A stretch of 64,000 nucleotides of DNA from a virus (lineage: Duplodnaviria; Heunggongvirae; Uroviricota; Caudoviricetes): IMG/VR virus record IMGVR_UViG_2703718777_000015, one strand, 5' to 3'. The notes beneath the pieces are model-generated. The model was given only the letters and a program-made list of their open reading frames with translations. It searched no databases and had not been told where the DNA came from. Made by a program: the position numbers and the translations under genes. The number at the start of each line of letters is the position of its first letter. Position 1 is the stretch's first letter. Shown here one piece after another: positions 8,005 to 58,467 of this stretch.

Positions 8005-8006
8005 AG

Positions 8007-8033
8007 AAATCCCGCCAATCGGCGGGATTTTTA
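8007..8033. terminator. Bidirectional intrinsic terminator between convergent operons
   Basis: Hairpin AAATCCCGCC-AATC-GGCGGGATTT followed by T-run; approximate coordinates. Confidence 0.55.
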
Positions 8034-8035
8034 CC

Positions 8036-9130
8036 TCACGAGAAGCTCTTTTCTGATGTCAGCCAACAGTGCTCGTGCAAATCTCTTGGTGGTTTTTCGA
8101 CAAATGCCTCTTCAGCCACATCCTGCCAGGGGATTTGTTTAGCCCATTCAGCTATAGCGTTATGGTTTGCCGAGAATAACGGTATTGTATAGGCCTTCAG
8201 CCAGTCTAATGTGCTGGAGTTGTGTTTTTGAGCGTGATGTTTCGCATGGTGTTTGGCGATCACGATCGTAGGCACTACCCATTTACTACCGTCAGTCATT
8301 GTGAAGTGCATATTACGGGGAACAGATGACTTTTCCATCAACTCCCGAATCCCGGGAAATTTCCCCAAGATCAATCGGCGATATTCATCGCTATTGCGCC
8401 CACCAAACTCTTTGGCTTTGAATTCAAGATATGCTTCAGAAACGAGAGGTGAATCCTCTGTGTTTAGAGTTATCGCCGTGAAAAAACCAGCAGGATTGTT
8501 TTTACTATGGGCCAACCGGTGATGCGAATCATAAAAGTACCCTTTCTCGCGTTCCGATGGTTTCGACAGCAACAGCAGGCGCGAGTCATAATTGGTTAAA
8601 TTGCCAGTTATCACTGCATGAGCGCGATCGCTGATTTCCGCCGAGTTAATAACGATGAAAAGATCGTGCGGTCCAGTAAAACCAGCCAGAGACACTTCGT
8701 TATTCAGACAATAGGTTATATAGACGCATCCCCATATTTCACTGATATGCACCAACCCTTTGTCAGGGTGCATTCTGAAATGATTGCCAAGAAAAGGGTG
8801 TTTTTGGGTAACTTGCTCCCAATAACGGAACATATAGTCAATTATTGTTTTTCGACTATCGTTAATAGCAGGAGAAACAACCACTGTACGGGAACACGAA
8901 TACAGTATTGTTTGCAGGATGCTAATCACTGCCACAATAGAGGTTTCCCCAATACCATGTGGTGTGGTGGCAGTGACTTTGGCTCCGGTGTTCTTTATCG
9001 CGTTAATAATTTTTGCTTGATGAGGTGTTAACTCAATATCAAGCAACTCTTTCGCTGCCAGTTCCCAATTGTCTTTATACTGTTCTATCAGTGCTAACCA
9101 GGCAGGTTCATTCTGTATACGATTAGTCAC
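8036..9130 (-). CDS. Terminase large-subunit ATPase-domain paralogue with degenerate Walker A/B motifs
   Basis: 364-aa ORF; clear similarity to PacB (28367..29851) N-terminal half (e.g. GYFYDSHHRLA vs [24 protein letters not shown] vs [13 protein letters not shown]); P-loop reads PHGIGETS (PacB GHGTGKSD), Walker B reads IVINSAE (PacB YIIDEAS); no nuclease domain. Confidence 0.6.
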   Translation of the reverse strand: MTNRIQNEPAWLALIEQYKDNWELAAKELLDIELTPHQAKIINAIKNTGAKVTATTPHGIGETSIVAVISILQTILYSCSRTVVVSPAINDSRKTIIDYMFRYWEQVTQKHPFLGNHFRMHPDKGLVHISEIWGCVYITYCLNNEVSLAGFTGPHDLFIVINSAEISDRAHAVITGNLTNYDSRLLLLSKPSEREKGYFYDSHHRLAHSKNNPAGFFTAITLNTEDSPLVSEAYLEFKAKEFGGRNSDEYRRLILGKFPGIRELMEKSSVPRNMHFTMTDGSKWVVPTIVIAKHHAKHHAQKHNSSTLDWLKAYTIPLFSANHNAIAEWAKQIPWQDVAEEAFVEKPPRDLHEHCWLTSEKSFS

Positions 9131-14418: not shown

Positions 14419-17400
14419 ATGAACAAGCTATCTATGGGGGTATTTCGCTGTTCAAGTGTCAGCGAAATATTGAAATATATTAGGGCAATAACATCTCACC
14501 GAGCGCCGATTAAATACGGCGTGGAAAAGGTGGAAGGCAAAAGCTATGACCGACTGCGCCGGGAGGCGAATCAGAAGGCGATAGATTTGCTTAATTCGCT
14601 GGTGGACGGCGCGACACTGACAGATGAACAGCGCCAGATCCTGGCTGGGTACACCGGTGAAGGCGGCATTGGCGGGTCCGTCTCCGAATATTACACACCA
14701 AAGCCGATCGCTGAAGGTGTCTGGGAGATCATGAAGCTCTACGGCGCGGACGTAGGTAACACTCTGGAACCATCGGCGGGAACCGGCGTTTTTAATGAGA
14801 CAAAACCGGTTGGTACGGTGATGACCGCGACTGAGATCAGCAGTGTTTCCGGTCGTATAAACCAGTTGTTACACCCGGAAGACAGCGTACAGATTTCCCC
14901 GTTCGAACAGCTGGCTATAAGCACTCCTAACGATTCATTCGACCATGTTGTGGGTAACGTTCCGTTCGGCGGTCGTGATAACACACGCAACATCGATAAG
15001 CCTTACGCAGAAGAAACGGACATGGGTTCTTACTTCATGCTCCGCATGCTGGACAAGATAAAGCCAGGCGGATTCATGTGCGTGATTGTGCCGCCGTCCA
15101 TTGTTTCAGGTTCAAACATGAAGCGGTTACGCCTGCGCTTATCCCGTAAAGCTGAATTTCTTGGCGCTCACCGCTTGCCTACCGGTACTTTTGACGCAAA
15201 CGGGACCAGTACAGTCGTTGATGTGGTGCTGATGCGCAAACATCCGGCAGAGATGGCTGAGAAAATCCCCCTGGTGGATGAAAGCACTCTTGAATCGGCA
15301 AATGTGCTTTGGCCAACGTTTATTTCTGGCAAGTGGTTTGAAAAGGATGGCCGCCGGTTTGTTCATGGTACCCAGGAAAAGGGCTTCCAGGGGCGTATTG
15401 AGGTTCGTGCCGACGGGCAGATTGATAACCAGGCTCTTAAAGCGAAGCTGATTCATCGTTTCGAAAGTCGTATCGACTGGTCTTTGCTCGATATGGCTGA
15501 ACCGTTACCGACCGCAGATGTTGTTGATGAAGGGGAAATGCGCCTGATTAATGGCGTATGGCAAAAATATGCTGGTGGTCGCTGGATTGAAGCTGATGCC
15601 GGGAAGGAACTTAAGATCGATGCTGCCAGTTATGGCGCGGATAGCTGGGAGGCTCTTCAGCGTAACCTGACTACAACAGAAGGCCGTCTCGGCATGACAT
15701 TTACCCAGATGGCAAATGTCCGCGATAAGTACACCACATCAATCAGCGACGATATGGTGCAGCTGGTGGACTGGATTAACAGCCAGCCTGAAAAATACCG
15801 TGAACGCTTGTATCGCGGGGCGATGATTGGCCGGATGTTAATTGAATATCAGGACATGAAGGCCGCCGGGCATAGTGCTGAACAAATCGAACAGCAGCGC
15901 CTTTCTCTGGTATCCCGTTTGCAGGCAGAGATTGACCGTTTTGGTAACCCCGGTCGCGGTCCGATAGCGAAATTATCGGGGAGCGGTGCGCGCGCCTGGT
16001 TTGCTTTCCGTGGTGCAATTAAGCTGGATGGCACTATTTCTGACGAGCTGACAGGAAAGCTGGTTACGCATGATTCCAGCGCAAGTTATGACTCCACCAG
16101 CTATCAGGACACCCTGCGTTATCTCTACAGTGATCTCACTCGCGATCCAATCCAGCTCGATGATTTCCGCCTTGCGTTTACCGGCGAACTGCCAGCCAGT
16201 GATGAAGAGTTGCTTAATTTATTGGCCAGCACCCCTGGTATTGCGGTTTCACCGTATGGCGGGATTGTTCCGTTCGCCCGCGCCACCAGCGGCGACATTA
16301 ACGAGATAGTGGCTCCAAAACAGGAATTCCTTGCCACACTCCCCGACGGTCCAGTAAAGAACAACGTCCTTAATCAGCTGGCAGCGATCGAAGAGAAGCG
16401 CATCAAGACGCCAGCAGAGAATATCCGCTTTAAGCTCAATAGCCGTTGGTTCGACCGCTCCGTCATTCTGGAGTTTTTGCAGGAAAACGGCTATCCGGAT
16501 CTGCGCTATGTGCAGTCAGTGCAGCTGGAAGGCGACGAAATGGTTTCTGACACCTATCACGGTGGTGATGGTCTGTTCGTCGGGCACCGATACGGTGTCG
16601 TCCAGCGCAAGGATAAAGAAACAGGCGAGATCCACTACGAGTGGGACCGTAAATCAGGTGAAAACGCGACCGGGTTCCCGGCACAGCTGGAAAAGTATCT
16701 CAATGGTGCGCGTATCGGTGGCAAAGATAGCGCGACGGCGAACGGCTACCGCGAGCAGATGGCACTGCTTGAGGACCAGTTCAATAAGTGGATCAAGACG
16801 CACGATCGCTACGATGAGCTGGTTGCCAAATACAACGATGTTTTCAATAGCAATATTCCGTATGAACACTCTGGTGATCCGCTTGGGTTGAAGGGATTAA
16901 GCGGTAAGCGTCAGCCATTTGATTACCAGAATAGCGAGGTGCGCCGACTGTCCGAAGATGGGCGCGGCATCCTGGGCTTCGGCACCGGGCTGGGTAAAAC
17001 CACGACCGCGCTGGCGCTTGAGGCGTTCAACTATGAGAACGGTCGTTCCACCCGTACTGCGTATGTAGTGCCTAAATCAGTGCTGGAAAACTGGTATTAC
17101 GAAGCAAAAGAGTTTCTGAGTGAAGAGGCATTCAGTAACTACCTGTTCGTCGGTCTTGATGTGCTGATGGATGGCGATCAGATTCGCCAGGTGCCGGTGC
17201 TCGATGAGAACGGTAAACCTGTCGTTGGTGCAGATGGCACTCCCGTTATGCGCGATGCCCTTAAGCTGGCAGATGAAGCCACTATCACGGCGCGGATGAA
17301 CGCGATCCCGCACTCAAACTACCGTGCAGTCGTGTTTACCAAAGAACAATACGCCCGCATTCCGCTACGTGATGACACCGTAGATGAGCATGCACAAGAC

Positions 17401-20400
17401 ATGCTTTATGACTTCGTTGCTGCCGGGCGTGTGGCCAGCGCAATGGACTCCGATTCCCATCGCAAAGAGGCGGCGCGTCGCCGGGTATTGTCGGAGTATT
17501 CAGATACCGGTACCGAAAAAGCAGAGAAGTATCCGTACTTTGAGGATATGGGCTTCGACAGCGTGATTGCTGACGAAGGCCACAACTACCGCAATAGCTA
17601 TAAAAATGGTCGCGAAGCGTCACAGCTGGCCTATCTGCCCACCAGCGCGGTGGCGCAATCGGCGCGAGATATGGCAATCAAAAACGCGTACCTGATGAAA
17701 AAGAATGGTGGGCGTGGACCGGTTCTCCTGACTGCAACGCCAGTCGTTAACACCCCGATCGATGCATACAACATGCTTTCTCATGTTCTGCCGAAGGAAT
17801 ACTGGCAGAAGATGGGGATCTACGGTCCTGATGACTTCGTTAAATTCTTCGGCAAGACCAGGCTGGAAACGGTACAGAAAATCAGCGGTGAAGTTGAAGA
17901 AAAAATGGCGCTGGTGGGCTTTGAAAACCTTGATGCGCTGCGCGGCATATTCCATCGCTGGACAACGCTTAAAACGGCGGAAGACGTTAAGGATACCGTG
18001 GAGATCCCGGAGCTGGACGAACACCAGCAGGATGCACCACTTACTGAAGAACAACTGGCGGCGTATGAAGAATTGCGTCAGCAGGCGGAAGCGGCGGCCA
18101 AAGCCAACAATGGCGTAACGACCTCGGTCGATGAAGACGGAGTGATTGAGCACGAGAAAGCCCGTCCGATCTTCTCAATAATCAGGGATATGGACCGCGT
18201 ATGTACTGACATGGACCTGTACTATCGCCGGATCACCTATCGTTTCCTGCCGGAGTACGCCGATGCGGTGCAGCAGCTGGCGGACAGTTTGCCCAAACAA
18301 GCCACCAGCGAAGACGACGACAGTGATGATTCAATCACGCAGCAATCGCAATACTCCCTGATAGATAAGGGCGAGTTTATTCAGTTGCAGGTTCCGGAAG
18401 CGTTCGAGCAGGAAGTGAATAAGCGCTTGGCCAAGTTTGGCATTGACGAACAGACCGTAACTCACCCCGTTACGCCCAAATACGTGAAGCTGATCGCCAC
18501 GCTGAAGGAGTTTTTCCCGGAAGGTAAGCAAATCATCTTCACGGACGAAAAAACGCAGCACCAGAAGCTCAAGCGCATTATCTGCAATGCTCTTAACCTT
18601 GAACCTTCAAAGGTGGGGATCCTGAATGCTCAGACGGTTGCCGAGGCAGGTAAAACCGGTAAGAAACTGAAAGCGGTTAAACCGCCGAAAGAGTTACCGG
18701 ATGAACCAACAGATGCACAGATAGCGAAATACAACGAGCAAATGGCTCTGTATGACGCCTATATCGCGCAGCAGAATGAAATGTCGTTGGGCGGTCTGGA
18801 AAAGATTGCAGCCGACTTCCAGGAGGGCCGGACTCCGATCATCATCTGCAACAAAAAGGCAGAGGTGGGTATCAACCTGCATCGAGGAACGACTGACATC
18901 CATCATCTGACGTTGCCATGGACACCAGCCAGTATCGCACAGCGTAACGGTCGCGGTGCCCGAGTTGGCTCCAACCGTGCAAGCGTTCGCGTTCACTACT
19001 ACTGCGGCAAGGGTTCTTTCGATGAATACCGACTGAAGACGCTGAAGCGTAAAGCAGGCTGGATCTCCGATATCCTCCGTTCAGATAAGTCAGAAATGGA
19101 GAACGCCGACGCCAACGATATGATCGAAATGCAGATGTATACCGCTAAGGATGATGGCGAACGTCTGGCAATGATGCAGGTTCAAATGGATAAGGCGAAA
19201 GCCGCGCAACGCGCTCGCCAGAAAGAACAGGCTACTATCGACCTTCAGAACTACATCAAGGCGCAGCACGCAGCTGGCGAGGATGTGGAGGTACTTACCG
19301 CTGAATTAGAGCGAAGCAAAGCGGAACTTGAAAAGACCACCGCCGAGGTAGCTAAATTCAAACAGGCGGTAATGGCCAAAGCAGCTGATAACGCAGACTG
19401 GAAAGCCCGCTGGGGTAGCGTCCATCACACAGACCGTACGTTGTTAGCACAGTATCGCGCGTCGTTGAAAAGCGCCATTCAGCGCAAGGCTAATATCTCT
19501 CAAGCCATCTCCCGCTATGAGAAATTATTGAACCGTACTCAGAAGGCCGCGACGGATATCAAACGCCTGCGCCCGCTGGTGGAGGATGCAATAAATAAAG
19601 GCATTCTGGATGTTGATCCTGACCTGGTTAACCATGCGAGTGGGTTCCTTGTTATCGGCGATCGCTCATGGCGTGTAGGCCAATACTACGATTGTGCCGG
19701 TGATATCGTTCGCATTAAGTCGCTGGACTTCGACAGCCAGCGCGCAGACGTGGAGATTATCTTTACCTTCAAAGGTACCAAATCGGGTAACTGGGATGTG
19801 AAGACGCTGGATAAACAGGTTGATGTAACTCCCGATGAAGATGCTGTTATGCAGAAAATCAGTGGTGGCGTCTCCATCGCCGGGATTAACGACATCATTT
19901 CCTGTGACGATTTCTACCGTTTCCAGCAGCGCGGCATGATCAAAATCACTGACTCATACGGCGTTCAGACTACAGAGTCAGGCTATAGCATCGATTTTGT
20001 TGGTACCTATACGGACCCACTGAAGCATGCGGTTTACCCGGATCGCCGTGACGGCGCGCTGAAGTCGTCAATTGCAAAATGGGTGCTTGGTATGATGTCG
20101 GAAGGGAATAACCGCCAGATCCGTTCGGCAGAAACATTCCTGGTTGAACTGTTTGGCTCCAATTATGGCGATGTAATCGCGTCATACGGAGATACGCTAT
20201 CCCCTGAAGCAATTCAGGAGAAAATAGCGGATGCGATCGCCAGAATGCCGGAAAAAACAAGCCAGGGGGCTACTCGTAACGGGGATTCTGAACTTGAAGT
20301 CACCAATGCCATTTTCGGTACCAATGAGTTCCGGGCGTCAGATTATGAGATCACCACAGCACAGTTTGGCACCATTGGCATTTACAGCAATAAAGACGAG

Positions 20401-21186
20401 ATCAAACAGTCAATGGACGCTGCAAGCGCGCGCATTGCAGCAGAACGCAAAGCCAATCTGAATCATGCAGTTTCCGCGCTGACTCAATCGTGGGTAACAG
20501 CAATCAGGGAGGCCGCCACCACAGGAAAAATCACACCGGCAATTGCGGATGTCGTAAACGACGGCTCTAAATTTATGGATGCCTATAAAATGGATGCGGT
20601 GCAGTTGCCATCAGCCTATGGTCAACTCAGCTATCGCATGACCTACAACCTGGTATCAATGTTTTCCGACCTTGCCATCCTTGGGCTGGTGGATCTTAAC
20701 GAGGTTACGCCGGAATTGCTCAGCATGCGCAAGAATCATGTGGAGATATTGCAGAGAATTAACACGGTTCTTGCTGGGCGCTCCGATGAAGAGAAACAGG
20801 CCGACGCTGATCGGATAAACCTGGCCCTTGGCAACATCACGGAGGAAGAGATTGCCGCCAGAAACGAGAAACAAGAAGAGTTATCATCAATACAGGGTGA
20901 TGCCACCAGCATAGCTCAGTCTCTTGGTCTGAATTATCGCGTATCCACCGCCGACCTGAAGATGATGTACGCACCAAAATTCGCCGCTGGCGAGGTATTT
21001 GGGCTTCAGGAAGCCTCAGGCATGAAAGGCGTTCTTTTCCGTGCGAAAGACGCAATCAAGGCGAAATTCGGCGCTCGCTGGCTGCCAGCGAAGGCGAAGA
21101 ACAGCGATTTCCCGGGTAACTGGTGGATTATCGAGACAAAACACAACGTGGCGGACGTTCTGGCCGTCATCCAACAATACGCATAA
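14419..21186 (+). CDS. darB: DarB antirestriction protein (methyltransferase-helicase fusion, packaged in capsid)
   Basis: 2255-aa ORF; N-terminal N6-methyltransferase-like region and central SF2 helicase motifs (GTGLGKTT, DEGHNYRN). Confidence 0.85.
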   Translation: MNKLSMGVFRCSSVSEILKYIRAITSHRAPIKYGVEKVEGKSYDRLRREANQKAIDLLNSLVDGATLTDEQRQILAGYTGEGGIGGSVSEYYTPKPIAEGVWEIMKLYGADVGNTLEPSAGTGVFNETKPVGTVMTATEISSVSGRINQLLHPEDSVQISPFEQLAISTPNDSFDHVVGNVPFGGRDNTRNIDKPYAEETDMGSYFMLRMLDKIKPGGFMCVIVPPSIVSGSNMKRLRLRLSRKAEFLGAHRLPTGTFDANGTSTVVDVVLMRKHPAEMAEKIPLVDESTLESANVLWPTFISGKWFEKDGRRFVHGTQEKGFQGRIEVRADGQIDNQALKAKLIHRFESRIDWSLLDMAEPLPTADVVDEGEMRLINGVWQKYAGGRWIEADAGKELKIDAASYGADSWEALQRNLTTTEGRLGMTFTQMANVRDKYTTSISDDMVQLVDWINSQPEKYRERLYRGAMIGRMLIEYQDMKAAGHSAEQIEQQRLSLVSRLQAEIDRFGNPGRGPIAKLSGSGARAWFAFRGAIKLDGTISDELTGKLVTHDSSASYDSTSYQDTLRYLYSDLTRDPIQLDDFRLAFTGELPASDEELLNLLASTPGIAVSPYGGIVPFARATSGDINEIVAPKQEFLATLPDGPVKNNVLNQLAAIEEKRIKTPAENIRFKLNSRWFDRSVILEFLQENGYPDLRYVQSVQLEGDEMVSDTYHGGDGLFVGHRYGVVQRKDKETGEIHYEWDRKSGENATGFPAQLEKYLNGARIGGKDSATANGYREQMALLEDQFNKWIKTHDRYDELVAKYNDVFNSNIPYEHSGDPLGLKGLSGKRQPFDYQNSEVRRLSEDGRGILGFGTGLGKTTTALALEAFNYENGRSTRTAYVVPKSVLENWYYEAKEFLSEEAFSNYLFVGLDVLMDGDQIRQVPVLDENGKPVVGADGTPVMRDALKLADEATITARMNAIPHSNYRAVVFTKEQYARIPLRDDTVDEHAQDMLYDFVAAGRVASAMDSDSHRKEAARRRVLSEYSDTGTEKAEKYPYFEDMGFDSVIADEGHNYRNSYKNGREASQLAYLPTSAVAQSARDMAIKNAYLMKKNGGRGPVLLTATPVVNTPIDAYNMLSHVLPKEYWQKMGIYGPDDFVKFFGKTRLETVQKISGEVEEKMALVGFENLDALRGIFHRWTTLKTAEDVKDTVEIPELDEHQQDAPLTEEQLAAYEELRQQAEAAAKANNGVTTSVDEDGVIEHEKARPIFSIIRDMDRVCTDMDLYYRRITYRFLPEYADAVQQLADSLPKQATSEDDDSDDSITQQSQYSLIDKGEFIQLQVPEAFEQEVNKRLAKFGIDEQTVTHPVTPKYVKLIATLKEFFPEGKQIIFTDEKTQHQKLKRIICNALNLEPSKVGILNAQTVAEAGKTGKKLKAVKPPKELPDEPTDAQIAKYNEQMALYDAYIAQQNEMSLGGLEKIAADFQEGRTPIIICNKKAEVGINLHRGTTDIHHLTLPWTPASIAQRNGRGARVGSNRASVRVHYYCGKGSFDEYRLKTLKRKAGWISDILRSDKSEMENADANDMIEMQMYTAKDDGERLAMMQVQMDKAKAAQRARQKEQATIDLQNYIKAQHAAGEDVEVLTAELERSKAELEKTTAEVAKFKQAVMAKAADNADWKARWGSVHHTDRTLLAQYRASLKSAIQRKANISQAISRYEKLLNRTQKAATDIKRLRPLVEDAINKGILDVDPDLVNHASGFLVIGDRSWRVGQYYDCAGDIVRIKSLDFDSQRADVEIIFTFKGTKSGNWDVKTLDKQVDVTPDEDAVMQKISGGVSIAGINDIISCDDFYRFQQRGMIKITDSYGVQTTESGYSIDFVGTYTDPLKHAVYPDRRDGALKSSIAKWVLGMMSEGNNRQIRSAETFLVELFGSNYGDVIASYGDTLSPEAIQEKIADAIARMPEKTSQGATRNGDSELEVTNAIFGTNEFRASDYEITTAQFGTIGIYSNKDEIKQSMDAASARIAAERKANLNHAVSALTQSWVTAIREAATTGKITPAIADVVNDGSKFMDAYKMDAVQLPSAYGQLSYRMTYNLVSMFSDLAILGLVDLNEVTPELLSMRKNHVEILQRINTVLAGRSDEEKQADADRINLALGNITEEEIAARNEKQEELSSIQGDATSIAQSLGLNYRVSTADLKMMYAPKFAAGEVFGLQEASGMKGVLFRAKDAIKAKFGARWLPAKAKNSDFPGNWWIIETKHNVADVLAVIQQYA

Positions 21187-21219: not shown

Positions 21220-21660
21220 ATGGCCACACTATCTGATACAATAAAACCGAATAAAACATATCTTGAGGCGGTACTCCGTACAGCGTTGTTAGGAAAGACA
21301 GAAGACGAATACGTTGATTTCTTCCTGTCAGGGCTACGCGGGCGATTACTGAAAAATCCCCGCCTGTACCGCAGCTATGGTCCATACTGGCCGGAAATTA
21401 AAAAATTATTACTGGAGCGCGGTTATGGTAATTTCGGTCGTCTCGTTGACCGTGACGTTCGCAAAATTTACCGTTATGACCGTCCGGCGCTGACGCTCAT
21501 AGCCGCGACGCTCTACAGCCAGGAGCGTTTTGATAATGGTCAGATATACTCAGCCTGGCATTTACTGCCAGTGCCTGAAGAGGTTGACGACCAGGACTAT
21601 GAGTTTGAGTCTTACGATTTGGAAGTTGAAGCCTTGGCACAGGCTGGAGAGAAAACTTGA
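21220..21660 (+). CDS. ulx: Ulx-like protein downstream of darB
   Basis: 146-aa ORF, darB-ulx-lxc order. Confidence 0.5.
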   Translation: MATLSDTIKPNKTYLEAVLRTALLGKTEDEYVDFFLSGLRGRLLKNPRLYRSYGPYWPEIKKLLLERGYGNFGRLVDRDVRKIYRYDRPALTLIAATLYSQERFDNGQIYSAWHLLPVPEEVDDQDYEFESYDLEVEALAQAGEKT

Positions 21661-21905
21661 AAAAGCGATACTACACAGTAAAGCATGGGACGCTACGAGC
21701 ATTACAAGAGTTTGCTGACAAGCATAACGTTGAGGTGCGCAGGGAAGGGGGAAGTAAAGCTCTGCGCATGTACCGTCCGGACGGAAAATGGCGGACGGTC
21801 GTCGATTTCAAAACTAACAGCGTTCCCCAGGGCGTCCGCGACCGGGCATTCGAGGAATGGGAGCAGATCATCATAGATAACGCATTGCTCCTGAATGCTG
21901 ATTAA
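21657..21905 (+). CDS. lxc: Lxc-like C1 co-repressor
   Basis: 82-aa ORF overlapping ulx stop. Confidence 0.5.
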   Translation: MKKRYYTVKHGTLRALQEFADKHNVEVRREGGSKALRMYRPDGKWRTVVDFKTNSVPQGVRDRAFEEWEQIIIDNALLLNAD

Positions 21906-21910
21906 GAACT

Positions 21911-21937
21911 CTCCGGCCTAGGGAGATTAGGCCGGAG
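21911..21937. terminator. Bidirectional terminator hairpin between lxc and SIR2-like gene
   Basis: Inverted repeat CTCCGGCCTA...TAGGCCGGAG between convergent genes; approximate. Confidence 0.5.
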
Positions 21938-21946
21938 ATAAATATA

Positions 21947-23251
21947 CTATATAAACTTAGATATAATATCGTGAATCTGTTGTAGCGGGATTTCTTCCAT
22001 CTTACTCTTAATAAGAGAGCGGTTAGATGCTGTCAGTGAAGGCCATTTTGTTTTCCAGGCTAGATATGCTCGCCATGAGTAGCCTGTTTCGTAAGGTTTA
22101 TTCATATAAGTCATTGAGTGTTCAACCGCATGTATGTATTTTTTCTCAAAGTTGGTTCCTTTTACTTCAAATAAACTACCGAAATAAATAAGCCATTTTG
22201 CCAGGTGTTCATACTGCTCCCATGCGCCAGACTCTTTAGTAAGATCTATTTTTTTATCTATTATATCACAAAAAACATTTAATACCTTTTCATCATTCCA
22301 GCTATATCCAGATGATGAAATGGAGGAAATGATATGATAAAAAGAATCCTCTAACTTCAAGAACTCTATTTTATACTCTCTTCCGTTTTTTATTACCGAT
22401 TTGATTGAGTGCCTCAATTTGTCTTTTATTTTTTTTGCTTCTGGAATTTTCTTGTTAAGTTTTCTAAAGAAATCAGACACCTCTGTTTTATCTATAACCC
22501 TAATCCCAAAGCAGGAAAAATAGTAATCTTTAATAGGTTGCAATAGTTTCCCTCGGGAAATAAGGAAAATATTGGAGGACATTACGTTGTCCCGTGAAAA
22601 TACCTTATATTCATTTATAATCGCCTTGAGGTTCGCGTCACTTAGAGAATAGCCAAGAATAACAATAGTGTTTTCATGTAGAACTGTGCTTAGTTTATTT
22701 GAAAAGTAAGAATTACCATTTATAAATCTGAAATAATCCTCGCTAGTAACAACCATATCTGATGGGGAGTCTATAGAGCCGTGAACATGGTAGACTTTAA
22801 CCTCACAATTATATTTTGGAATTGGCAGGCCGGGGGTGATTGTACACGTTCGATTCTCTCCAGCCAGTTTTTCTGCTAACTTGTCATAATTTGTCGTAAT
22901 TACTTTAAATGTGTTTTCTTTGAAAAAGTCTTGAATATATTCAATTGATGGATCAAGTTCGATTGAGGCTATGATTTTCTCAATCTCCTGGTAAATATTT
23001 TTCCCCGAAAGTATAAATTTTAGTGCAATAACCTGAGCAGCCTCTTCAAGGCTAAGGTCTTTTGCTTTTCCATCAGGAAATAATTCCTCTTTGAGTGAGT
23101 CACCATCCTTCAATAAACCGCACAGTTGCTCCAATAAAGATTGCCAACTTGGGGCTTTATCATCAGAAACAGCCTTTGAAAATCCAGTGCCTGTAAGAAA
23201 GCACAGCCTATGTGTAGCTGCTGCATAGGCAATTTCTATATACTCGCTCAT
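21947..23251 (-). CDS. SIR2_2-family (sirtuin-like) protein with unknown C-terminal domain; candidate NAD-depleting defence effector
   Basis: 434-aa ORF; motifs FLTGTGFS...PSWQSLLEQL, VITTNYDKLAE (N121), VYHVHGS (H157), IVILGYSLSD typical of SIR2_2 domains (ThsA/DSR-like); markedly AT-rich compared with flanks; sits at the P1 res/mod position. Confidence 0.7.
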   Translation of the reverse strand: MSEYIEIAYAAATHRLCFLTGTGFSKAVSDDKAPSWQSLLEQLCGLLKDGDSLKEELFPDGKAKDLSLEEAAQVIALKFILSGKNIYQEIEKIIASIELDPSIEYIQDFFKENTFKVITTNYDKLAEKLAGENRTCTITPGLPIPKYNCEVKVYHVHGSIDSPSDMVVTSEDYFRFINGNSYFSNKLSTVLHENTIVILGYSLSDANLKAIINEYKVFSRDNVMSSNIFLISRGKLLQPIKDYYFSCFGIRVIDKTEVSDFFRKLNKKIPEAKKIKDKLRHSIKSVIKNGREYKIEFLKLEDSFYHIISSISSSGYSWNDEKVLNVFCDIIDKKIDLTKESGAWEQYEHLAKWLIYFGSLFEVKGTNFEKKYIHAVEHSMTYMNKPYETGYSWRAYLAWKTKWPSLTASNRSLIKSKMEEIPLQQIHDIISKFI

Positions 23252-23307
23252 TACTTACTCCATTTACTTATAGTTCTACGGAGAAGTATACCCTAATGCA
23301 TTGACGT

Positions 23308-23961
23308 TTATAGATAATTTCCTTTTCCTGTTAATACTCCCTTAGGCACCTGTTTTTGTGCCAGCGTTTGGGTTCCGCGAATTATGTTAATCAGAGGGCT
23401 TAGTAACGATGGTTCCTGGCGTGCCTCAACTTCTCCAGCCATTGCCCTGATGTAGTCTGCGCTGGCAACGTTGTTGTATTCCGTCGCAAAGCAACATAGT
23501 AACGTCAGAACATGCTCTGTCGTTATTTCGCTCCAGTTGATGTTGAAAAATTCATCGCCTTTTTTGTCGTGTTCGGAATCGAAGATGCTTTGGTGGAGGA
23601 TGTATTTGCCGGATTCTTTGCGCGGTAACTTGATCGCTTTCTGGCGTTCCAATTCCTTGTAAATCTGCATTGCTTCAATCAGTACCGGCCTGCCGTTCAT
23701 AAAGGGATCTCGCAACCTTACACGCTGGCCAACTCGACCAGTAATAAAGCTGTTTTCCTCTTCCACCAGCACGATAAAACCCTTTTCCTCTTTTTCTCGC
23801 AATTCGCGCAGCAGCTGGAGTTCCATGTCGCGGCGGCGTTCAGGGTAGCTGGTCCGCTCAGCCATTATCAGCTCATTGTTGATCCATGCAGCAGTCATTG
23901 ACGCCGGTTTGCCGACGCTCATTGAAACAACGCATATTTTCTTATCCATAGCGCCCCACAA
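23308..23961 (-). CDS. Hypothetical protein; either Mat (maturation) homolog or partner of the SIR2-like gene
   Basis: 217-aa ORF between ref and the SIR2-like gene, same strand, backbone-like GC content. Confidence 0.4.
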   Translation of the reverse strand: MWGAMDKKICVVSMSVGKPASMTAAWINNELIMAERTSYPERRRDMELQLLRELREKEEKGFIVLVEEENSFITGRVGQRVRLRDPFMNGRPVLIEAMQIYKELERQKAIKLPRKESGKYILHQSIFDSEHDKKGDEFFNINWSEITTEHVLTLLCCFATEYNNVASADYIRAMAGEVEARQEPSLLSPLINIIRGTQTLAQKQVPKGVLTGKGNYL

Positions 23962-24136: not shown

Positions 24137-24697
24137 TTAGTGCATGATGTTTGCCATCTCATAGGCGTCAGCCAGCAACTCCATCTCTGACTTGTTAAGC
24201 AAGGTGAATTCTTTCTTGCCTCCAACCACACCATCGGCATGAACAGGGACCAGCCAAGGGTATTTTTCTCTTACTTCAGCCGGTGCTGCATGCTGGTGGT
24301 GCCATCTGCAAAGGGGCAATTGCTTTTTGTGACAACCCGGCGCGGTACGACCGGAGATATGGTGCAGAGACACCTCTTCAGATATTACTCCATGCATGTA
24401 GCAGGCAATGCAGGGGAGAGCGCCAAGAGCATTGGCGATGCGCCGTTCCTCCGCCGTTGGTGTTCTCCCCTTCAAGCCACGAGATTTTATTTTTACCGCG
24501 CTTTTCCGCGTTTTGCTGGCTGGTGGGCGCTCTTTCTGTTTAGCGATACGGCGGTCGATAGTATCCCGCATTTTCTGATATTGCGATTCTCGCCAGGCGG
24601 GGTCAGCCAACTTTTCCCGTTGCCGAGCGATCGCTCGTTCTCTGGCTGCCTTCTGCCACTCGCGGCGCTGTTCAATTTTTTGTTCGATTGTTTTCAT
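24137..24697 (-). CDS. ref: Ref recombination-enhancement HNH endonuclease
   Basis: Track ORF 24137..24802; start at Met36 gives 186 aa; C-terminal Cys/His HNH-type motif. Confidence 0.8.
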   Translation of the reverse strand: MKTIEQKIEQRREWQKAARERAIARQREKLADPAWRESQYQKMRDTIDRRIAKQKERPPASKTRKSAVKIKSRGLKGRTPTAEERRIANALGALPCIACYMHGVISEEVSLHHISGRTAPGCHKKQLPLCRWHHQHAAPAEVREKYPWLVPVHADGVVGGKKEFTLLNKSEMELLADAYEMANIMH

Positions 24698-24702
24698 ATG
24701 GC

Positions 24703-24728
24703 AAAAAAAAGGCGGCCTAATGGCCGCC
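24703..24728 (-). terminator. Intrinsic-terminator-like hairpin plus T8 immediately upstream of ref start codon
   Basis: GGCGGCC-ATTA-GGCCGCC followed by TTTTTTTT then GCCATATG (reconstructed from the ORF-track N-terminal extension AIRPPFFCHM). Confidence 0.5.
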
Positions 24729-24789
24729 AATGATGTCAAGGAGTGAAGTAATGGCAACGTCTTCGTAGTTGACAAAAACTGCGGCTCAA

Positions 24790-24812
24790 TTATAACAATC
24801 AATTAGAGCAAT
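24790..24812 (-). promoter_or_regulatory. C1 operator overlapping putative ref promoter
   Basis: ATTGCTCTAATTGATTG followed by TTATAAT on minus strand; approximate. Confidence 0.5.
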
Positions 24813-34028: not shown

Positions 34029-34163
34029 TACATTAAAGAGACACCTTTGGTGCAAACGCGTTACGTACATCAACAACCGCTGATGATTTTGTGCGCTTTG
34101 CTACTATTCATCACCAACGGATCAGCGTAACCTCGTTGCCAATCAGTTAATAAGGAATTAGCT

Positions 34164-34616
34164 ATGCCTAATGGCATTCCTCTCGATCCTGTATTGCCCA
34201 AAAATTTTGACTGCACTCCTAACGAGAAACGCTCTAAAGCTCAGCTGGACGCCTGGTGGGACCATCCCTATGGGGTTACAGAACATGACGGGAAAATTGT
34301 TGTTTATTGTCTGAATGGTGGCGCGTGGGACCGTCCATCCGTGCTTGGTTTGGCAAATAACTATGATGAAGCCTGTGAACTTGCCGAAAGACAGCAGGCT
34401 AGATGGGTGAAAACACGGTCACAGCCGACATTCATGTTTTCAAAAGAACCGCCATTTATACTGGCGAGGATGCCGCAGCGACCGGATCATCAACAAGAAA
34501 TTGTTGCTGAATTTTCCTCAAGGGATGAGATGAATCTCTTCTCATTAAAGCAGGAAGAAAGGGAGCGCGTCGAAGTGTCTCCAACTCTCGACCACAACCG
34601 GATGAACCTGGCCTAA
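34164..34616 (+). CDS. Hypothetical protein divergent from humD (possibly LexA-regulated)
   Basis: 150-aa ORF sharing the LexA-box intergenic region. Confidence 0.4.
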   Translation: MPNGIPLDPVLPKNFDCTPNEKRSKAQLDAWWDHPYGVTEHDGKIVVYCLNGGAWDRPSVLGLANNYDEACELAERQQARWVKTRSQPTFMFSKEPPFILARMPQRPDHQQEIVAEFSSRDEMNLFSLKQEERERVEVSPTLDHNRMNLA

Positions 34617-34742
34617 CTCGCCTGGTACAGCAAAGAATTAGAGATGTCTATTGCCCGACTTGAAAACGAAAAAGCCGCTATCCAAGCCCAGCATGAAGCT
34701 GTCATTGCCAGGATACGAGAAGTTCAAAACGGTTAACTACCG

Positions 34743-35006
34743 CTATTTCTTTACGGCATCATCTTTCTGATATGCCGGATCGCTCCCTTTTGGCAACTGG
34801 AGGCTTAACTGCCAGTAGTGCCGTAGCCGTTCCATGAAATAGGTGCGCAGATTCTCTGGTTGCTCGCGGGCTACCTGTTCAGCTATGACAGGTATGTTCA
34901 ATCGCTCTTTGTACGCCACACCGCTGGCAGCCAGATCAACGTTAACCTTATCCCGTTCTTCCTGACTTTTAGCTGCAATATTCCAATCGTACATATCAAA
35001 TCCCAT
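34743..35006 (-). CDS. hot: Hot, homolog of DNA polymerase III theta subunit
   Basis: 87-aa ORF with [39 protein letters not shown] closely resembling E. coli HolE. Confidence 0.75.
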
Positions 35007-35656
35007 CCAGAATAATTGAGTAACGACTATTATTTAACCAGCAAAGTAACTTTTAATTTTTTTTCTTCTCCCATTGATTTTTGTGCACAGCTTATCTGCC
35101 TTGCCGTGCGCAGAATCAACTTTTTTCTTCCTGATTTATCCACAAAGTTATGCACTTGCAAGAGGGCCATTTTCTAAATATTGTGATGTTTCACAAATGA
35201 AATGAATTTTGATTAATGAAGATAAGGAGAAAATTTGAGATGCAATCATGACGTTAATAGATAGGGTCTGCATTACAGACCCCACCCGCATCAAGGAATT
35301 AGCCGTTCCCTGATGTTGTTCCGAAAACATGTGCCGTAAGCTCACGTTAACGACTTTCTTTCACCGAATCCAACTATATAAGGGTTGGGTTTCTACGTCA
35401 ACGTGAGCAAGTGCTCCTTTACATTTGACAAGGAACCACCTTAATGACTGCTTTTTTTCAGTTCCTGAGTGCATTTTTAGATGCGCCTGTTATTAGCCAG
35501 ATTCTGGCTATTATCCTCATCATCGTTTTGATTTTGCTTTTAAGGTCAGTAAAAAATGGAATTATGCACTGGCTTACTTAATGTTTCAGTGAAACATTAA
35601 AATCTCCTTGATGTGGAAACAATCATTTTCTGTATGTGCTGGTGGGTACCTGTAGT

Positions 35657-36019
35657 TCAGCTTTCGTTGGCATTTAACTTCGTCTTTGCTTTCTCCACCA
35701 GCAACTTCCAGATGCCTATTTCATTAGCAGCCGCCTTGATGGCGGCATAAAAAGCATCTTGCTGATCGTAACGCTGAATCTGTTTTTTCAGTTTTGCCTC
35801 CACCAATTTAATTTCATTACGTGCTTTCTGAAGCCGCCGCGCCGCCCGGTTACGTCTGTTCTTGTATAGCGCGTTAATCTCTGACAATTGCTTTAATTTA
35901 CCAGCCTGACTGCGGATTATCGCCTCTCTGACTTCTGCCGTGCGTCTCATCTGATCTCTTAAGAGTTCACCGTTTTCGATAATTCTTTCAAGGTGTTTGA
36001 TGTGATCTGCAACTCTCAT
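35657..36019 (-). CDS. Coiled-coil protein
   Basis: 120-aa ORF, Arg/Lys/Glu-rich heptad-like sequence. Confidence 0.4.
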   Translation of the reverse strand: MRVADHIKHLERIIENGELLRDQMRRTAEVREAIIRSQAGKLKQLSEINALYKNRRNRAARRLQKARNEIKLVEAKLKKQIQRYDQQDAFYAAIKAAANEIGIWKLLVEKAKTKLNANES

Positions 36020-36948
36020 ACTTCACCCTCGCTTGTATCGCCAGCATCCACCAACGGCAATAAAGCCATGGCCATCTTATGAACCAACAGAGCATCGATA
36101 ATGCCAAGCGTATGCCCCGGCTTAATGTTTAATGCCGCCTCAAGGTGACACCTTTCTAGGTCACTTTTCTCGGCTTGTTTATGATGATCTGGCGTAATAA
36201 CGTCGCCCAAAACACGGCTAATTCTTTCTCGTAATTGCTGGGTGCCAGCACACTTGACCGCTGTATCGTGGAGGCGGTTAACCAGTTCGCGATAAACATG
36301 CGGCTTAATTCGGATACGTTCACCGGGGACGCCCTTTCCTTTCGCTGGCACCGAACTATCCGGAATGTCCGGATAGTTGCCAGCCTCGTAAGCTACCCGC
36401 AGCCAGTGCATGAATGTTTCAGTGGACACACAACCACAGTCCACATCGATTTTCCCGCGTTGCTGTTCCAGCCATTGCCCAAAATCCAACCTGTAAGTCT
36501 TACTTTCAAGTTCATCACCATTGAACTCGACTTTCTGCGACGCTATGAGAGCTGATTCGTATTGTTCGCGAGTGACAACTGACTGGTATTCATCGCTATC
36601 AAGGTCACCAATTGGAAGCTCAATCTCACAACAAAAATTGCGCCCAAAGAAAGTGTCTTTTTTGTGGTCTGAGCCAAAAGCAAAAGTCGCGCATGGTGCC
36701 ATTAAATTGACACTGGGTAGGTAACAATAACTCATTCCATCAGGCCACCCGCCGCACTTAGGCAGCTCCTTCACTAACAAGTCGATAAGCTTCATTTTTT
36801 TATCATCTTTGCAAGCCGCCAAAGCCATTTGGGCAAGTGCCAATACTTCATCGGCCGTATATCCAGCACCGTGACCATACATTTCGATACGGGAAATAGT
36901 CTCTGATATACGCTCTTCAGTGATTCTGGTCATTTCTTTTTGCGCCAT
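36016..36948 (-). CDS. Hypothetical protein
   Basis: 310-aa ORF overlapping neighbours (operon). Confidence 0.45.
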   Translation of the reverse strand: MAQKEMTRITEERISETISRIEMYGHGAGYTADEVLALAQMALAACKDDKKMKLIDLLVKELPKCGGWPDGMSYCYLPSVNLMAPCATFAFGSDHKKDTFFGRNFCCEIELPIGDLDSDEYQSVVTREQYESALIASQKVEFNGDELESKTYRLDFGQWLEQQRGKIDVDCGCVSTETFMHWLRVAYEAGNYPDIPDSSVPAKGKGVPGERIRIKPHVYRELVNRLHDTAVKCAGTQQLRERISRVLGDVITPDHHKQAEKSDLERCHLEAALNIKPGHTLGIIDALLVHKMAMALLPLVDAGDTSEGEV

Positions 36949-38097: not shown

Positions 38098-39369
38098 TCA
38101 TTGACCTGCCTCCTGGGGAGGTTCTGGTAGCAGCATCCAGAACAAGGCGTTCCCTAACCACGATAAAGTGCCGTCGCTCAACTCCACGTATTCCCCTTGC
38201 ACCTGTCCTGCCATATACTCACTGTGCTTTGAATAAATTAAAATCCAATCATCTTGAGCGGGCATTCGCTCACTACAGCTTATCCAACCATCCGGAGTTA
38301 CCGGAGAATTGCCATTTACCAAGTCAGCTCGAACATATAGCGTGTCATCATGGTGCTGATTGTGGCTGCACCACGTTAATTCGCTTAACTCGCCATCTTC
38401 TGGCCATACTCCAGCTGTTTGCAGCCAGATATGGGCTGGCGCATCCTGGCAAGGTGTATTAACTGGAAACTTGTAAGTTTGGCTTACAGGTTGGATACCC
38501 TGAAGCATGGCAGCGTGGCAGGCATCCTCTACGCCCTTAACTGCATCTGCGCAGTAGTTATAGCGATTGCATTCCACTAACTTCTGCTTGAGATTTTCAA
38601 TTGCTTGCGCGACATCAGCCTGTATTTCCGGAACTGGCGGAACGGCTGTCTGCTGCTCTCGAACGTCATTAGTCGCTATCGGTTCTGCTGCCAACTGACT
38701 GGCATATTTGTTAATGGTAACGATAAGCTCTTGCTCAGCCTCATCCAGACAATCACCGATACCTCGCCTGTCACCGTCAAAATCATCGAAATCGGCACGA
38801 ACCCTGGCAACCTTCATAATTGCTGACAGCACCTCACCTGGAATTACCGGAGAGTTGCCAGCCAGTCTACGCAAAACAGCCTTAACAGCCTCAATACGGT
38901 CATCATCAACTTTTTCTACAATATTGGAATTTAAATACTTCGAAGCCTTGCTATGCCAATCGCTGGTTTTAGGGTCTTGTCCATCCATCAAACGCCAAGC
39001 TTCAGCGATTAACTCATAGCCAGTAACAGTGGCTTCCTGCGCATCACCAATCAGTTGTGTGATCTCTCTTTCAAGCATGCTTAGAGCGTTAGGCATTGGT
39101 TTTTCTTCAGGTACTACTGGCACTGGAGGGGCGGCATAAACAGGAATAACGTCCGGTTGCTCTTTATTGCTTTCATCCGTTAAAGCCCAGAATAATTTCC
39201 CGGCCGGATGTTTGAAAATATAAGCAACTGGTTCTGCTTCCAGTGATGCCAGCGCGATTTTGTATACTTCCAGATCCATTTGTGCAGTTACTAAATCAGG
39301 ATAACGATCCATAACCGTTATATTGCGCTTAATTATCTCTATTAATTGTTCTTTAGTAAAAGTGGTCAT
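38098..39369 (-). CDS. Hypothetical phage protein
   Basis: 423-aa ORF. Confidence 0.45.
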   Translation of the reverse strand: MTTFTKEQLIEIIKRNITVMDRYPDLVTAQMDLEVYKIALASLEAEPVAYIFKHPAGKLFWALTDESNKEQPDVIPVYAAPPVPVVPEEKPMPNALSMLEREITQLIGDAQEATVTGYELIAEAWRLMDGQDPKTSDWHSKASKYLNSNIVEKVDDDRIEAVKAVLRRLAGNSPVIPGEVLSAIMKVARVRADFDDFDGDRRGIGDCLDEAEQELIVTINKYASQLAAEPIATNDVREQQTAVPPVPEIQADVAQAIENLKQKLVECNRYNYCADAVKGVEDACHAAMLQGIQPVSQTYKFPVNTPCQDAPAHIWLQTAGVWPEDGELSELTWCSHNQHHDDTLYVRADLVNGNSPVTPDGWISCSERMPAQDDWILIYSKHSEYMAGQVQGEYVELSDGTLSWLGNALFWMLLPEPPQEAGQ

Positions 39370-39379
39370 TCGTTATGCC

Positions 39380-39658
39380 TCAATACACAAAATCTGTTTT
39401 AAATTCATGGTTACATTCTGGGCAGCATGTTTCGTAATCTTTTATTTCTTCACATGCCTGTTTTGCTCCAGAAAATTCCCAGAAATCAGCATCGCAAAGC
39501 AGATCGAAATTGTGGCCGCATTTTGGGCATTCAGTATCAAGTGATAAACTCCAGTAAGCAGGTGTGTTTTTGTCCATATCACTCTCCTTTGATGCGAATG
39601 CCTGCGGCGCGTGGCACATTAACTTCCACGATGCGCACTGTTGGTTTGTACATCTCAA
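39380..39658 (-). CDS. Small zinc-ribbon protein
   Basis: ORF with two CxxC pairs (CPKCGH...CCPECNH); true start probably an internal Met because the track ORF overlaps the next gene. Confidence 0.35.
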   Translation of the reverse strand: MRCTNQQCASWKLMCHAPQAFASKESDMDKNTPAYWSLSLDTECPKCGHNFDLLCDADFWEFSGAKQACEEIKDYETCCPECNHEFKTDFVY

Positions 39659-40073
39659 TCGCTGTCAGCCAGTCAGCTCCTGTCATGCGCTTTTCCGCAT
39701 CGCCATTAGTCCACTGAACCGGTACACCAATAGCCTTCATCGCGATTTCTATTTCCCCGGCAATGGCGCTTTTTCCGCAACCAGTAAAACCAGAAACAAC
39801 GACAAGAACTTCACCTTTGGCTGGTTTTATTTCCCGATCTTCCAGTTCTGCAATGCGCTTTTTGTCTGCTTCCCGTTCATCAAGTAGTGCCAGCACGGTT
39901 TCTGGTCCGGCCAGAAATTTGAAGGCGTTGAGCGCATCAATATCCACACCGTAATCTTTAAGTTCCTGTTCACTTAACAAATCATCATCAACTGGCAACA
40001 TTAACAGGCGTTCCATTGCTGGAGTTGCACGTTCTGCCGCCTCACGCAGTGCCTGGTAATTAATTTCGCTCAC
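39579..40073 (-). CDS. Ead/Ea22-like phage accessory protein
   Basis: 164-aa ORF; N-terminus INYQALREAAERATP paralogous to next gene. Confidence 0.45.
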   Translation of the reverse strand: MSEINYQALREAAERATPAMERLLMLPVDDDLLSEQELKDYGVDIDALNAFKFLAGPETVLALLDEREADKKRIAELEDREIKPAKGEVLVVVSGFTGCGKSAIAGEIEIAMKAIGVPVQWTNGDAEKRMTGADWLTAIEMYKPTVRIVEVNVPRAAGIRIKGE

Positions 40074-40759
40074 TGGTTGCCTCCTTTGCGAAGCTCAGCG
40101 GCGAAGGCTACTGCGTGATCATGATGTTCAAGTGTGTATGCACACTCCGCAAACATCTCCACGCCCTGCGCCCGTACTTCAGCCAGGCATTTGCGAAACT
40201 CGGAAACGTACTGTTCGACGCTCATTCCCCAGCTAAGTGGACATTCATTGAATGTTTCGCCTTCGTGCTCTTCATCAGGTAGCTCTTTGGTAAAGAACTC
40301 ACGCTCAATGGCGTGGAGTGTGTCAGCAAAACGACGTAAGTTACTCAAACCTACCGTAATGGAGAATTCAGGAGCATCACATCCGACGCCCATCTGCTGA
40401 TAAACGGCGGTTTTGAAGGCCTTAAGCCCCGCATTCTCCGCCACCAGCGCCGCGAGATTAGTCTCAAGCTCTGCAATTCGGCACATAGCATCAATATTTG
40501 TGTCCTCCAGGCGCTTAATTTCACCAAGCAGCTCCAGTGCAACCTTTGGGTTGAACGCGGCAACATAACGAGCGTTGTTCTCTGCATTTTTCTGTCCATC
40601 AAAGCCGGTCCATTTGATAACGTCTTCACATCGTTCATCACCGGGCGTGTGCACCGCATAAGTACCAGTATCCGTCGAAATAAATGCGACCCATTCGTCT
40701 GGTGTTGCCTTTTCTGCCGCCTCACGCAGTACCTGATAGTCAATTGTCATTCTCGCCAT
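40070..40759 (-). CDS. Ead/Ea22-like phage accessory protein (paralogue)
   Basis: 229-aa ORF; N-terminus IDYQVLREAAEKATP. Confidence 0.45.
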   Translation of the reverse strand: MARMTIDYQVLREAAEKATPDEWVAFISTDTGTYAVHTPGDERCEDVIKWTGFDGQKNAENNARYVAAFNPKVALELLGEIKRLEDTNIDAMCRIAELETNLAALVAENAGLKAFKTAVYQQMGVGCDAPEFSITVGLSNLRRFADTLHAIEREFFTKELPDEEHEGETFNECPLSWGMSVEQYVSEFRKCLAEVRAQGVEMFAECAYTLEHHDHAVAFAAELRKGGNQ

Positions 40760-58439: not shown

Positions 58440-58467
58440 ATTACACTAATAAATTTATTAGGGCAAT
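58440..58467. promoter_or_regulatory. Palindromic double C1 operator (ATTACACTAATAAATTTATTAGGGCAAT)
   Basis: Two overlapping inverted operator half-matches at head of the tRNA-plp-ban transcription unit; approximate. Confidence 0.5.

Follow-up and report, generated by a model that had tools for sequence, protein, structure and literature searches.

Bacterial immunity holds several effectors built on a SIR2 domain that hydrolyses nicotinamide adenine dinucleotide (NAD+; the enzymes are NADases). In Thoeris, the C-terminal SLOG domain of ThsA binds a cyclic ADP-ribose isomer as signal, and ThsA needs the TIR protein ThsB. DSR2, a single protein of ~1,000 amino acids (aa), joins an N-terminal SIR2 NADase to a helical-repeat C-terminal region that binds a phage protein, and KomC, the SIR2 NADase of Kongming, is a 264-aa SIR2-only protein that belongs to a three-gene system with KomA and KomB. 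CapRel^SJ46, a toxin-antitoxin fusion encoded by the temperate phage SJ46, confers protection under its native promoter and responds directly to a phage major capsid protein as trigger (Zhang et al., PMC9712102). Here we analyse a 64,000-nucleotide stretch of a Caudoviricetes virus (IMG/VR record IMGVR_UViG_2703718777_000015; the window, meaning the whole stretch), a P1-like phage-plasmid in which an earlier note had singled out a 434-aa open reading frame (ORF) between lxc/darB and ref/cre. We put at about 60% the probability that this ORF encodes an immunity protein that acts against phages as a single, self-contained gene product and forms accessory cargo of the lxc-mat (RD-1) hotspot.

Both the ORF and the gene order around it, darB-ulx-lxc on one side and mat-ref-c8-cre on the other, proved to be as the earlier note had them (Table 1). 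Its identification of a SIR2_2 domain also held: the five motifs lie at the residues it gave (FLTGTGFS, aa 18-25; PSWQSLLEQL, aa 34-43; TTNYD, aa 119-123; HVHGS, aa 155-159; ILGYSLSD, aa 198-205), and Pfam SIR2_2 (PF13289) matches aa 117-245 with 83.8 bits (E=1.6e-23) against a gathering cutoff of 24.5 bits. Across an alignment of 50 full-length homologues, T119, T120, N121, Y122, D123, H155, H157, G158 and S159 are invariant, and thus both residues that had been named as catalytic, N121 and H157, are too. These two are the equivalents of the catalytic Asn and His of ThsA (N112/H152) and DSR2 (N133/H171), and a PDB sequence search pairs H157 with DSR2 H171. Judged from sequence, the domain belongs to the immune NADase branch of the SIR2_2 superfamily, with NAD+ hydrolysis as its predicted activity.

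The C-terminal 180 aa, in which no family had been recognised, indeed match none in Pfam. An AlphaFold2 model built from the 50-sequence alignment is confident (predicted local distance difference test score 86.7, predicted template modelling score 0.85) and consists of an alpha/beta SIR2 domain (~aa 1-254) followed by an all-helical C-terminal domain (CTD; aa 258-432). Invariant positions of the CTD in the same alignment are W344, Q346, Y347, W353, W393, W399, W403, N410 and R411. In structure comparison the highest scores went to KomC (23.0 in the KomBC complex and 22.2) and Streptococcus equi ThsA (22.0), followed by Avs5 (17.7 and 15.2), human FAM118B (17.0), PsSIR2 (16.6), SIR2-HerA (12.4) and classical deacetylase sirtuins (10-13). 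The PDB sequence search returned these proteins too, with matches confined to the SIR2 core, and a search of the viral structures in BFVD gave weak matches to the SIR2 domain alone, with no two-domain match.

An exhaustive search of 1.84 billion representative proteins with a CTD profile yielded only 94 clusters. All full-length matches are 421-480 aa long and have the domain at approximately residues 255-450, the remainder being fragments, and SIR2_2 is the sole Pfam domain in each of the ten most divergent full-length matches. In a second search, across 5.8 billion proteins, the CTD was again seen only alongside PF13289 or as fragments. Because the CTD occurs in no other setting, we regard it and the SIR2 domain as one obligate unit; the idea of a shuffled module was rejected, as neither of these very large searches returned a fusion to another effector.

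The two halves of this unit nevertheless differ in their divergence. Mean pairwise identity is 54% for the CTD versus 70% for the SIR2 domain, and between two close P1 alleles the figures are 69% and 94%. Nei-Gojobori ratios of non-synonymous to synonymous divergence (dN/dS) are 0.14-0.16 in the CTD and 0.06-0.09 in the SIR2 domain, which indicates purifying selection in both, and taken domain by domain (0.06-0.16) they give no signal of positive selection. Synonymous divergence, too, is 1.8-2.5 times deeper in the CTD, and this therefore points to recombination and not to demonstrable positive selection. The variability of the CTD reflects weaker constraint together with a mosaic ancestry through recombination. 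An A8 homopolymer marks the domain boundary (Table 1); in plasmid p12579_1 (NC_017653) the tract is A7, and the resulting frameshift leaves a 275-aa SIR2 fragment and a 137-aa ORF, a variant that may represent sequencing error, decay or phase variation. Fragments that consist of the CTD alone are found repeatedly in E. coli (P0190, with 50 members; P0155, on 37 contigs).

Compared with the named families tested (Thoeris, DSR1/2, SIR2-HerA, PD-T7-2, Avs5, Lamassu, SPARSA and PDC-S25), the protein fits none, in agreement with the earlier note. Thoeris is set apart by the all-helical solenoid CTD, which is no SLOG domain, and by the lack of a TIR gene nearby. DSR2 is closer in layout, being one protein with an N-terminal SIR2 NADase ahead of a helical C-terminal region and with catalytic residues that align, but it is far longer than 434 aa, the similarity is confined to aa 51-260, and no homology is detectable between the CTD and the DSR2 C-terminal region; the NCBIfam models Dsr2 and Dsr1, for families of ~1,000-1,250 aa, score 30.6 and 21.2, through the SIR2 core only, against cutoffs of 1400. 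Unlike KomC, the protein has an additional 180-aa domain and no partner genes. SIR2-HerA (Nezha) and PD-T7-2 each involve an ATPase, and no ATPase gene is present in the cassette or its flanks; for the same comparison, Vassallo's Sir2-containing system was rejected as a match, since it is PD-T7-2, a two-gene system of SIR2(DUF4917) and an ATPase. Avs5 (SIR2-STAND) differs in that SIR2_2 is the only domain detected in the 434 aa, with no P-loop/STAND domain, and SPARSA (short pAgo plus SIR2-APAZ) in that no Argonaute gene is adjacent and the PADLOC Aga_SIR2 models do not match.

Three further comparisons come closer in size or setting. PADLOC profiles (library dated 2023) for ThsA and LmuA match the SIR2 domain with E-values of 7e-18 and 2e-13, and LmuA-SIR2 of Lamassu is of similar size (a 433-position profile; SIR2 domain matches of 2e-13 to 4e-19), yet Lamassu requires the SMC-like LmuB (and LmuC), of which none is nearby, and the match covers only profile positions ~14-250 of 433. 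The top PADLOC match is the candidate family PDC-S25, which likewise comprises single-gene SIR2_2 proteins in a mobile-element hotspot (pFR88, for example), but here it reaches 83 bits through the SIR2 core alone (profile positions 127-283/517), whereas the true member pFR88 reaches 284.7 bits over positions 10-342; membership would call for a match to nearly all of the 517/528-position profiles. Identity with pFR88, Rousset's P4-hotspot 'SIR2' clone, was accordingly rejected: that PDC-S25 protein is 25% identical in the SIR2 domain only, and the rest is unrelated. CapRel^SJ46 shares with the SIR2 protein the identical lxc-mat slot, the same orientation and a single polypeptide made of an N-terminal toxic enzyme and a C-terminal regulatory or sensor domain; it differs in being a tRNA-pyrophosphorylating toxSAS of unrelated fold and without sequence similarity, and not a SIR2 NADase.

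No partner gene emerged, as the earlier note had also reported. The flanks and the segments specific to the window have no annotated or detectable TIR, HerA, pAgo, SLOG or SMC partner, the ORFs of those segments have no relevant PADLOC or Pfam matches, and none of the TIR, HerA, Argonaute or SMC genes is listed for a closely related annotated plasmid (~99% identical over window 9914-34037). When ORFs within 3 kb were compared all against all in six genomic contexts of the family, no family was shared except P1 backbone.

The gene occupies the place in which reference P1 carries its restriction system, the EcoP1I res and mod genes, between mat and lxc, confirming the replacement that had been proposed. 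In RCS47, lxc and mat are ~30 bp apart; homology of the window to this phage ends at 21919 and restarts at 23312, and the cassette therefore measures 1,392 bp and lies precisely between the lxc and mat stop codons. This places the cassette boundaries outside the interval of the earlier note (21940-23305), which does contain the ORF. The SIR2 gene is the only ORF in the cassette and runs opposite to lxc and darB, as had been said, but shares its strand with mat, ref and cre. The GC content drops to a sharp trough at the gene, from 52% in darB to the 35.4% of the cassette.

Position between the lxc and mat stops, low GC content and alternative cargos in relatives are the traits of the RD-1 hotspot, and the SIR2 cassette has all of them. 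The slot is already known as a variable, low-GC region, termed 'RD-1 (res-mod)' (Venturini et al. 2019) and 'region 1' (PMC9603915); a SIR2 cargo is mentioned in neither paper. All alternative cargos examined start right after the mat stop and end right after the lxc stop, and each cargo type examined carries its own hairpin. In the window this hairpin is likely a terminator for the convergent SIR2 and lxc genes. The last 60-130 nucleotides (nt) of mat (window 23308-23440) diverge with the cargo, so the recombination boundaries often lie inside mat.

The SJ46 slot gene is a full-length match to PADLOC PDC-S33, and the two-ORF annotation of its counterpart in 673R5 suggests a frameshift or split of a CapRel-type gene. 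Most of the other cargos (YaaC, DUF2971, EAL, HTH, KilAC/Icd) are without a PADLOC match and can be taken as defence candidates. The candidate junction promoter of the window has a counterpart ahead of CapRel in SJ46 (TTAACA-16 nt-TATAAT), with TTAACA conserved in the mat 3' end, and could drive any cargo placed in the slot. A sigma-70 consensus scan upstream of the SIR2 gene called no promoter, position 6 of the -10 hexamer being A, and an Rfam scan of the SIR2 region gave no matches.

Table 1. Features of the SIR2 locus and alternative cargos of the lxc-mat slot. Positions are those of the window, except for slot cargos, whose positions refer to the locus given by its L number; HTH, helix-turn-helix.
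Feature	Position	Strand	Remarks
Complete SIR2 ORF	21947..23251	minus	434 aa plus stop, ATG start; two-domain SIR2 / helical-CTD protein, RefSeq WP_000006034.1
N-terminal SIR2_2 NADase-type domain	22490..23251	minus	aa 1-254; GxG motif aa 21-23
Catalytic codon N121	22889-22891	minus	in SIR2 domain
Catalytic codon H157	22781-22783	minus	in SIR2 domain
C-terminal all-helical domain	21950..22489	minus	aa 255-434; HEAT/TOG-like solenoid; no Pfam family; only SIR2-fused
A8 homopolymer	22429..22436	minus	gene nt 816-823; exactly at SIR2/CTD boundary
Inserted cassette	21920..23311		1,392 bp, 35.4% GC vs 48% for whole window; absent from empty-slot phage RCS47
Cassette-borne leader	23252..23311	minus	60 nt, GGAG ribosome-binding site; clade A and clade B alleles essentially identical
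Candidate junction promoter	23307..23334	minus	TTAACA in mat 3' end, 16 nt, TATAAA overlapping mat stop
GC-rich hairpin, 11 bp	21910..21938	minus	between SIR2 and lxc stops; -20.8 kcal/mol, z = -5.0
lxc	21657..21905	plus	conserved left slot boundary, P1 backbone
mat	23308..23961	minus	conserved right slot boundary; last 60-130 nt co-vary with cargo
darB	14419-21186		P1 backbone
ulx	21220-21660		P1 backbone
Slot cargo, P1			EcoP1I res/mod; mod carries IS5 (mod::IS5), between mat and lxc
Slot cargo, RCS47			none (empty)
Slot cargo, Salmonella phage SJ46	L016 2444-3565		one 373-aa RelA/SpoT-family gene, oriented like SIR2 gene
Slot cargo, phage vB_EcoM-673R5	L010 1469-2568		SJ46-type RelA/SpoT gene, annotated as two ORFs, 182 and 180 aa
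Slot cargo, Ro157c2YLVW	L011 1445-3019		HTH protein and hypothetical
Slot cargo, CP083706	L023 2801-4350		YaaC-family protein and hypothetical
Slot cargo, CP049847	L024 3275-4285		DUF2971 protein (PADLOC PDC-S31)
Slot cargo, CP091927	L025 3623-4312		EAL-domain protein
Slot cargo, CP100532	L022 2386-4467		KilAC antirepressor / Icd module

The gene is far from rare. Among 5,426 complete E. coli genomes, 674-699 have the ulx-lxc flank (~12% P1-like), and of these 69 carry the window allele (clade A) and 62 a second allele (clade B, with sub-variants B1, B2 and B3), always in the lxc-mat slot. In PLSDB, 127 plasmids encode a member of the family versus 696 with a P1-type mat, giving a share of ~18-19% of P1-like elements in both collections, and contigs with the identical protein number at least 1,000. 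A set of 50,697 phage records contained no DNA or close protein match, only distant matches to the SIR2 core in phages of Gram-positive hosts. Clade B is 59% identical to clade A in amino-acid sequence. The leader and the initial ~20 nt of the coding sequence are essentially identical between them, after which nucleotide identity falls to 50-70%, with synonymous sites saturated (proportion of synonymous differences 0.73-0.85). Given this saturation and deep divergence, we take the two clades to have been imported separately and not to have diverged in place.

Beyond P1-like elements, homologues of 55-61% identity, all 431-437 aa long, occur in Vibrio, Halomonas, Pseudoalteromonas, Marinobacter, Klebsiella, Pantoea, Pseudomonas, Delftia and Paracidovorax. 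The contexts include the end of an E. coli lambdoid prophage, where the gene stands alone directly after the integrase, a P4-like satellite in Klebsiella oxytoca, a V. cholerae contig that also bears GmrSD, and a defence-island-like region of Halomonas with HNH, DUF4145, HSDR_N, DUF87, FRG and AAA_16-TPR genes, and other homologues lie in ordinary chromosomal settings. The suggestion that the system might be undescribed thus holds for its function and the name of its family but not for its existence: the gene is common and generically annotated ('SIR2 family protein' in RefSeq WP_000006034.1, 'unknown function' in PHROG phrog_7567), and both the locus and the effector class are well known. Searches of open-access papers and bioRxiv for the accessions (WP_000006034, A0A2X1NFF5, A0A1D7QAD5 and others), or for P1-like elements together with SIR2, found nothing relevant.

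On the reading that we favour, single-gene immunity, the N-terminal domain would be an NAD+ hydrolase of the ThsA/DSR2/KomC type, held inactive by the family-specific helical CTD, which would also detect infection, most plausibly through binding to a protein from the incoming phage. Activation might proceed by oligomerisation, as in the closest structural relatives. The active SIR2 domain would then deplete NAD+ and abort the infection, so that both the P1 element and the population of lysogens would be shielded from phages that compete with them, with expression in the lysogen presumably driven from the junction promoter. The proposed role in defence draws on effector homology and on strong guilt by association, and it is strengthened by the occupants of the slot, with EcoP1I present in P1 and CapRel^SJ46, a validated system, in SJ46, and by the places where family members lie: the end of a lambdoid prophage, a P4-like satellite and regions resembling defence islands. 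Two considerations temper it: abortive infection and superinfection exclusion are outcomes that we infer, and pFR88 was among the 'additional tested systems' and not among the seven validated ones (Rousset et al. 2022), a caution that is not directly transferable to this protein.

Among the alternatives, plasmid addiction comes nearest to immunity, but we think it unlikely. The SIR2 gene would here be a post-segregational killing module that takes over the stabilising role of res-mod, the CTD restraining a toxic NADase in the service of P1 maintenance. The strict coupling of the two domains would suit such a module, res-mod has been described as aiding P1 plasmid stability, and a toxin-antitoxin fusion, CapRel^SJ46, is found in the same slot. 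CapRel itself senses phage, however, so that one role need not shut out the other; it is hard to see how toxin and antitoxin could decay at different rates when both are part of one polypeptide, and the family is also found in chromosomal, non-plasmid contexts. Slightly less probable still is an orphan effector, inert alone and completed by a partner from another locus, for example a TIR/ThsB signal producer of the host or an SMC complex of the Lamassu LmuB/C type. One homologue does have an SMC_N/AAA_23 gene ~1 kb away, and the PADLOC matches to ThsA and to LmuA, a protein of similar size, fit this idea, but these matches end with the SIR2 domain, the CTD is not an alpha/beta SLOG fold, the six contexts have no flanking gene in common, and the non-P1 segments of the window are free of TIR, HerA and SMC genes; cassettes that move among P1, lambdoid prophages and P4-like satellites should, moreover, depend on no other gene.

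We give the same low standing to the idea that P1 benefits from a genuine NAD-dependent deacylase or ADP-ribosyltransferase acting on proteins of the host or of phages, the activity given in the RefSeq product name. The protein matches neither the classical sirtuin family (Pfam SIR2, PF02146) nor its Cys4 zinc-binding module, and no CxxC zinc module is present in its sequence. The least probable of all, in our estimate, is a counter-defence gene with which P1 destroys NAD-derived immune signals or otherwise blunts host immunity, in the manner of the neighbouring anti-restriction genes darB and ulx. The SIR2 gene does adjoin the darB-ulx cluster, and it follows mat, a lytic-cycle gene, immediately downstream and in the same orientation. 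Against this, the other occupants of the slot are defence systems and not anti-defence genes, the family also occurs in chromosomal defence-island-like settings and at prophage ends, and none of the structural relatives is a known anti-defence protein.

A bolder version of the immunity reading can be offered only tentatively, and we would not bet on it at even odds. The protein would be the founder of a group of compact single-protein immune sensors, in which the Trp-rich HEAT-like CTD directly recognises a conserved phage component and switches on the SIR2 NADase, and the lxc-mat junction would be a general plug-in site for single-gene defences, the cargo being swapped by recombination and transcribed from the mat-end promoter. 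The cargos of this site would be EcoP1I, CapRel^SJ46, SIR2 clades A and B, DUF2971/PDC-S31 and others. On either version of the immunity reading, a minimal 434-aa sensor-effector would join the repertoire of SIR2 NADases and bring with it a new sensor domain, small enough for structural and trigger-mapping work.

With EcoP1I, CapRel^SJ46 and the SIR2 gene all at one insertion point, what was known as a 'variable region' becomes a defined hotspot of defence genes, in which more single-gene systems can be sought. About one-fifth of P1-like phage-plasmids carry the SIR2 gene, and P1-like elements, which spread antibiotic resistance, are present in ~12% of complete E. coli genomes; with such carriage, the gene may shape which phages, therapeutic ones included, can infect many clinical and livestock E. 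coli.

Elsewhere in the window, 8005-9121 is the only other stretch within 1-26772 that lacks homology to P1 positions 1-60000. It is the equivalent of RD-2, a known region that reads isaA-IS1-isaB in P1, and its 265-aa ORF (8036-8833, minus strand) has no Pfam or PADLOC match. Plasmid NZ_CP033848.1 is otherwise ~98-99% identical but differs at window 34037-36045 and 38102-40422, where the ORFs have no family match except a 423-aa DUF551 protein and an Ead/Ea22-like protein; its InsQ/TnpB insertion is absent from the window. The ref gene (24137-24802, minus strand) appears in the ORF list as 221 aa from an upstream TTG versus 186 aa in P1 and in the PGAP annotation; the longer form is an artefact of ORF calling and no real difference. 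On the same strand, 58458-60404 encodes a 648-aa fused C5-cytosine and N6-adenine (D12-class) DNA methyltransferase, classed by PADLOC as an orphan methyltransferase and probably a gene of the P1 dmt type.

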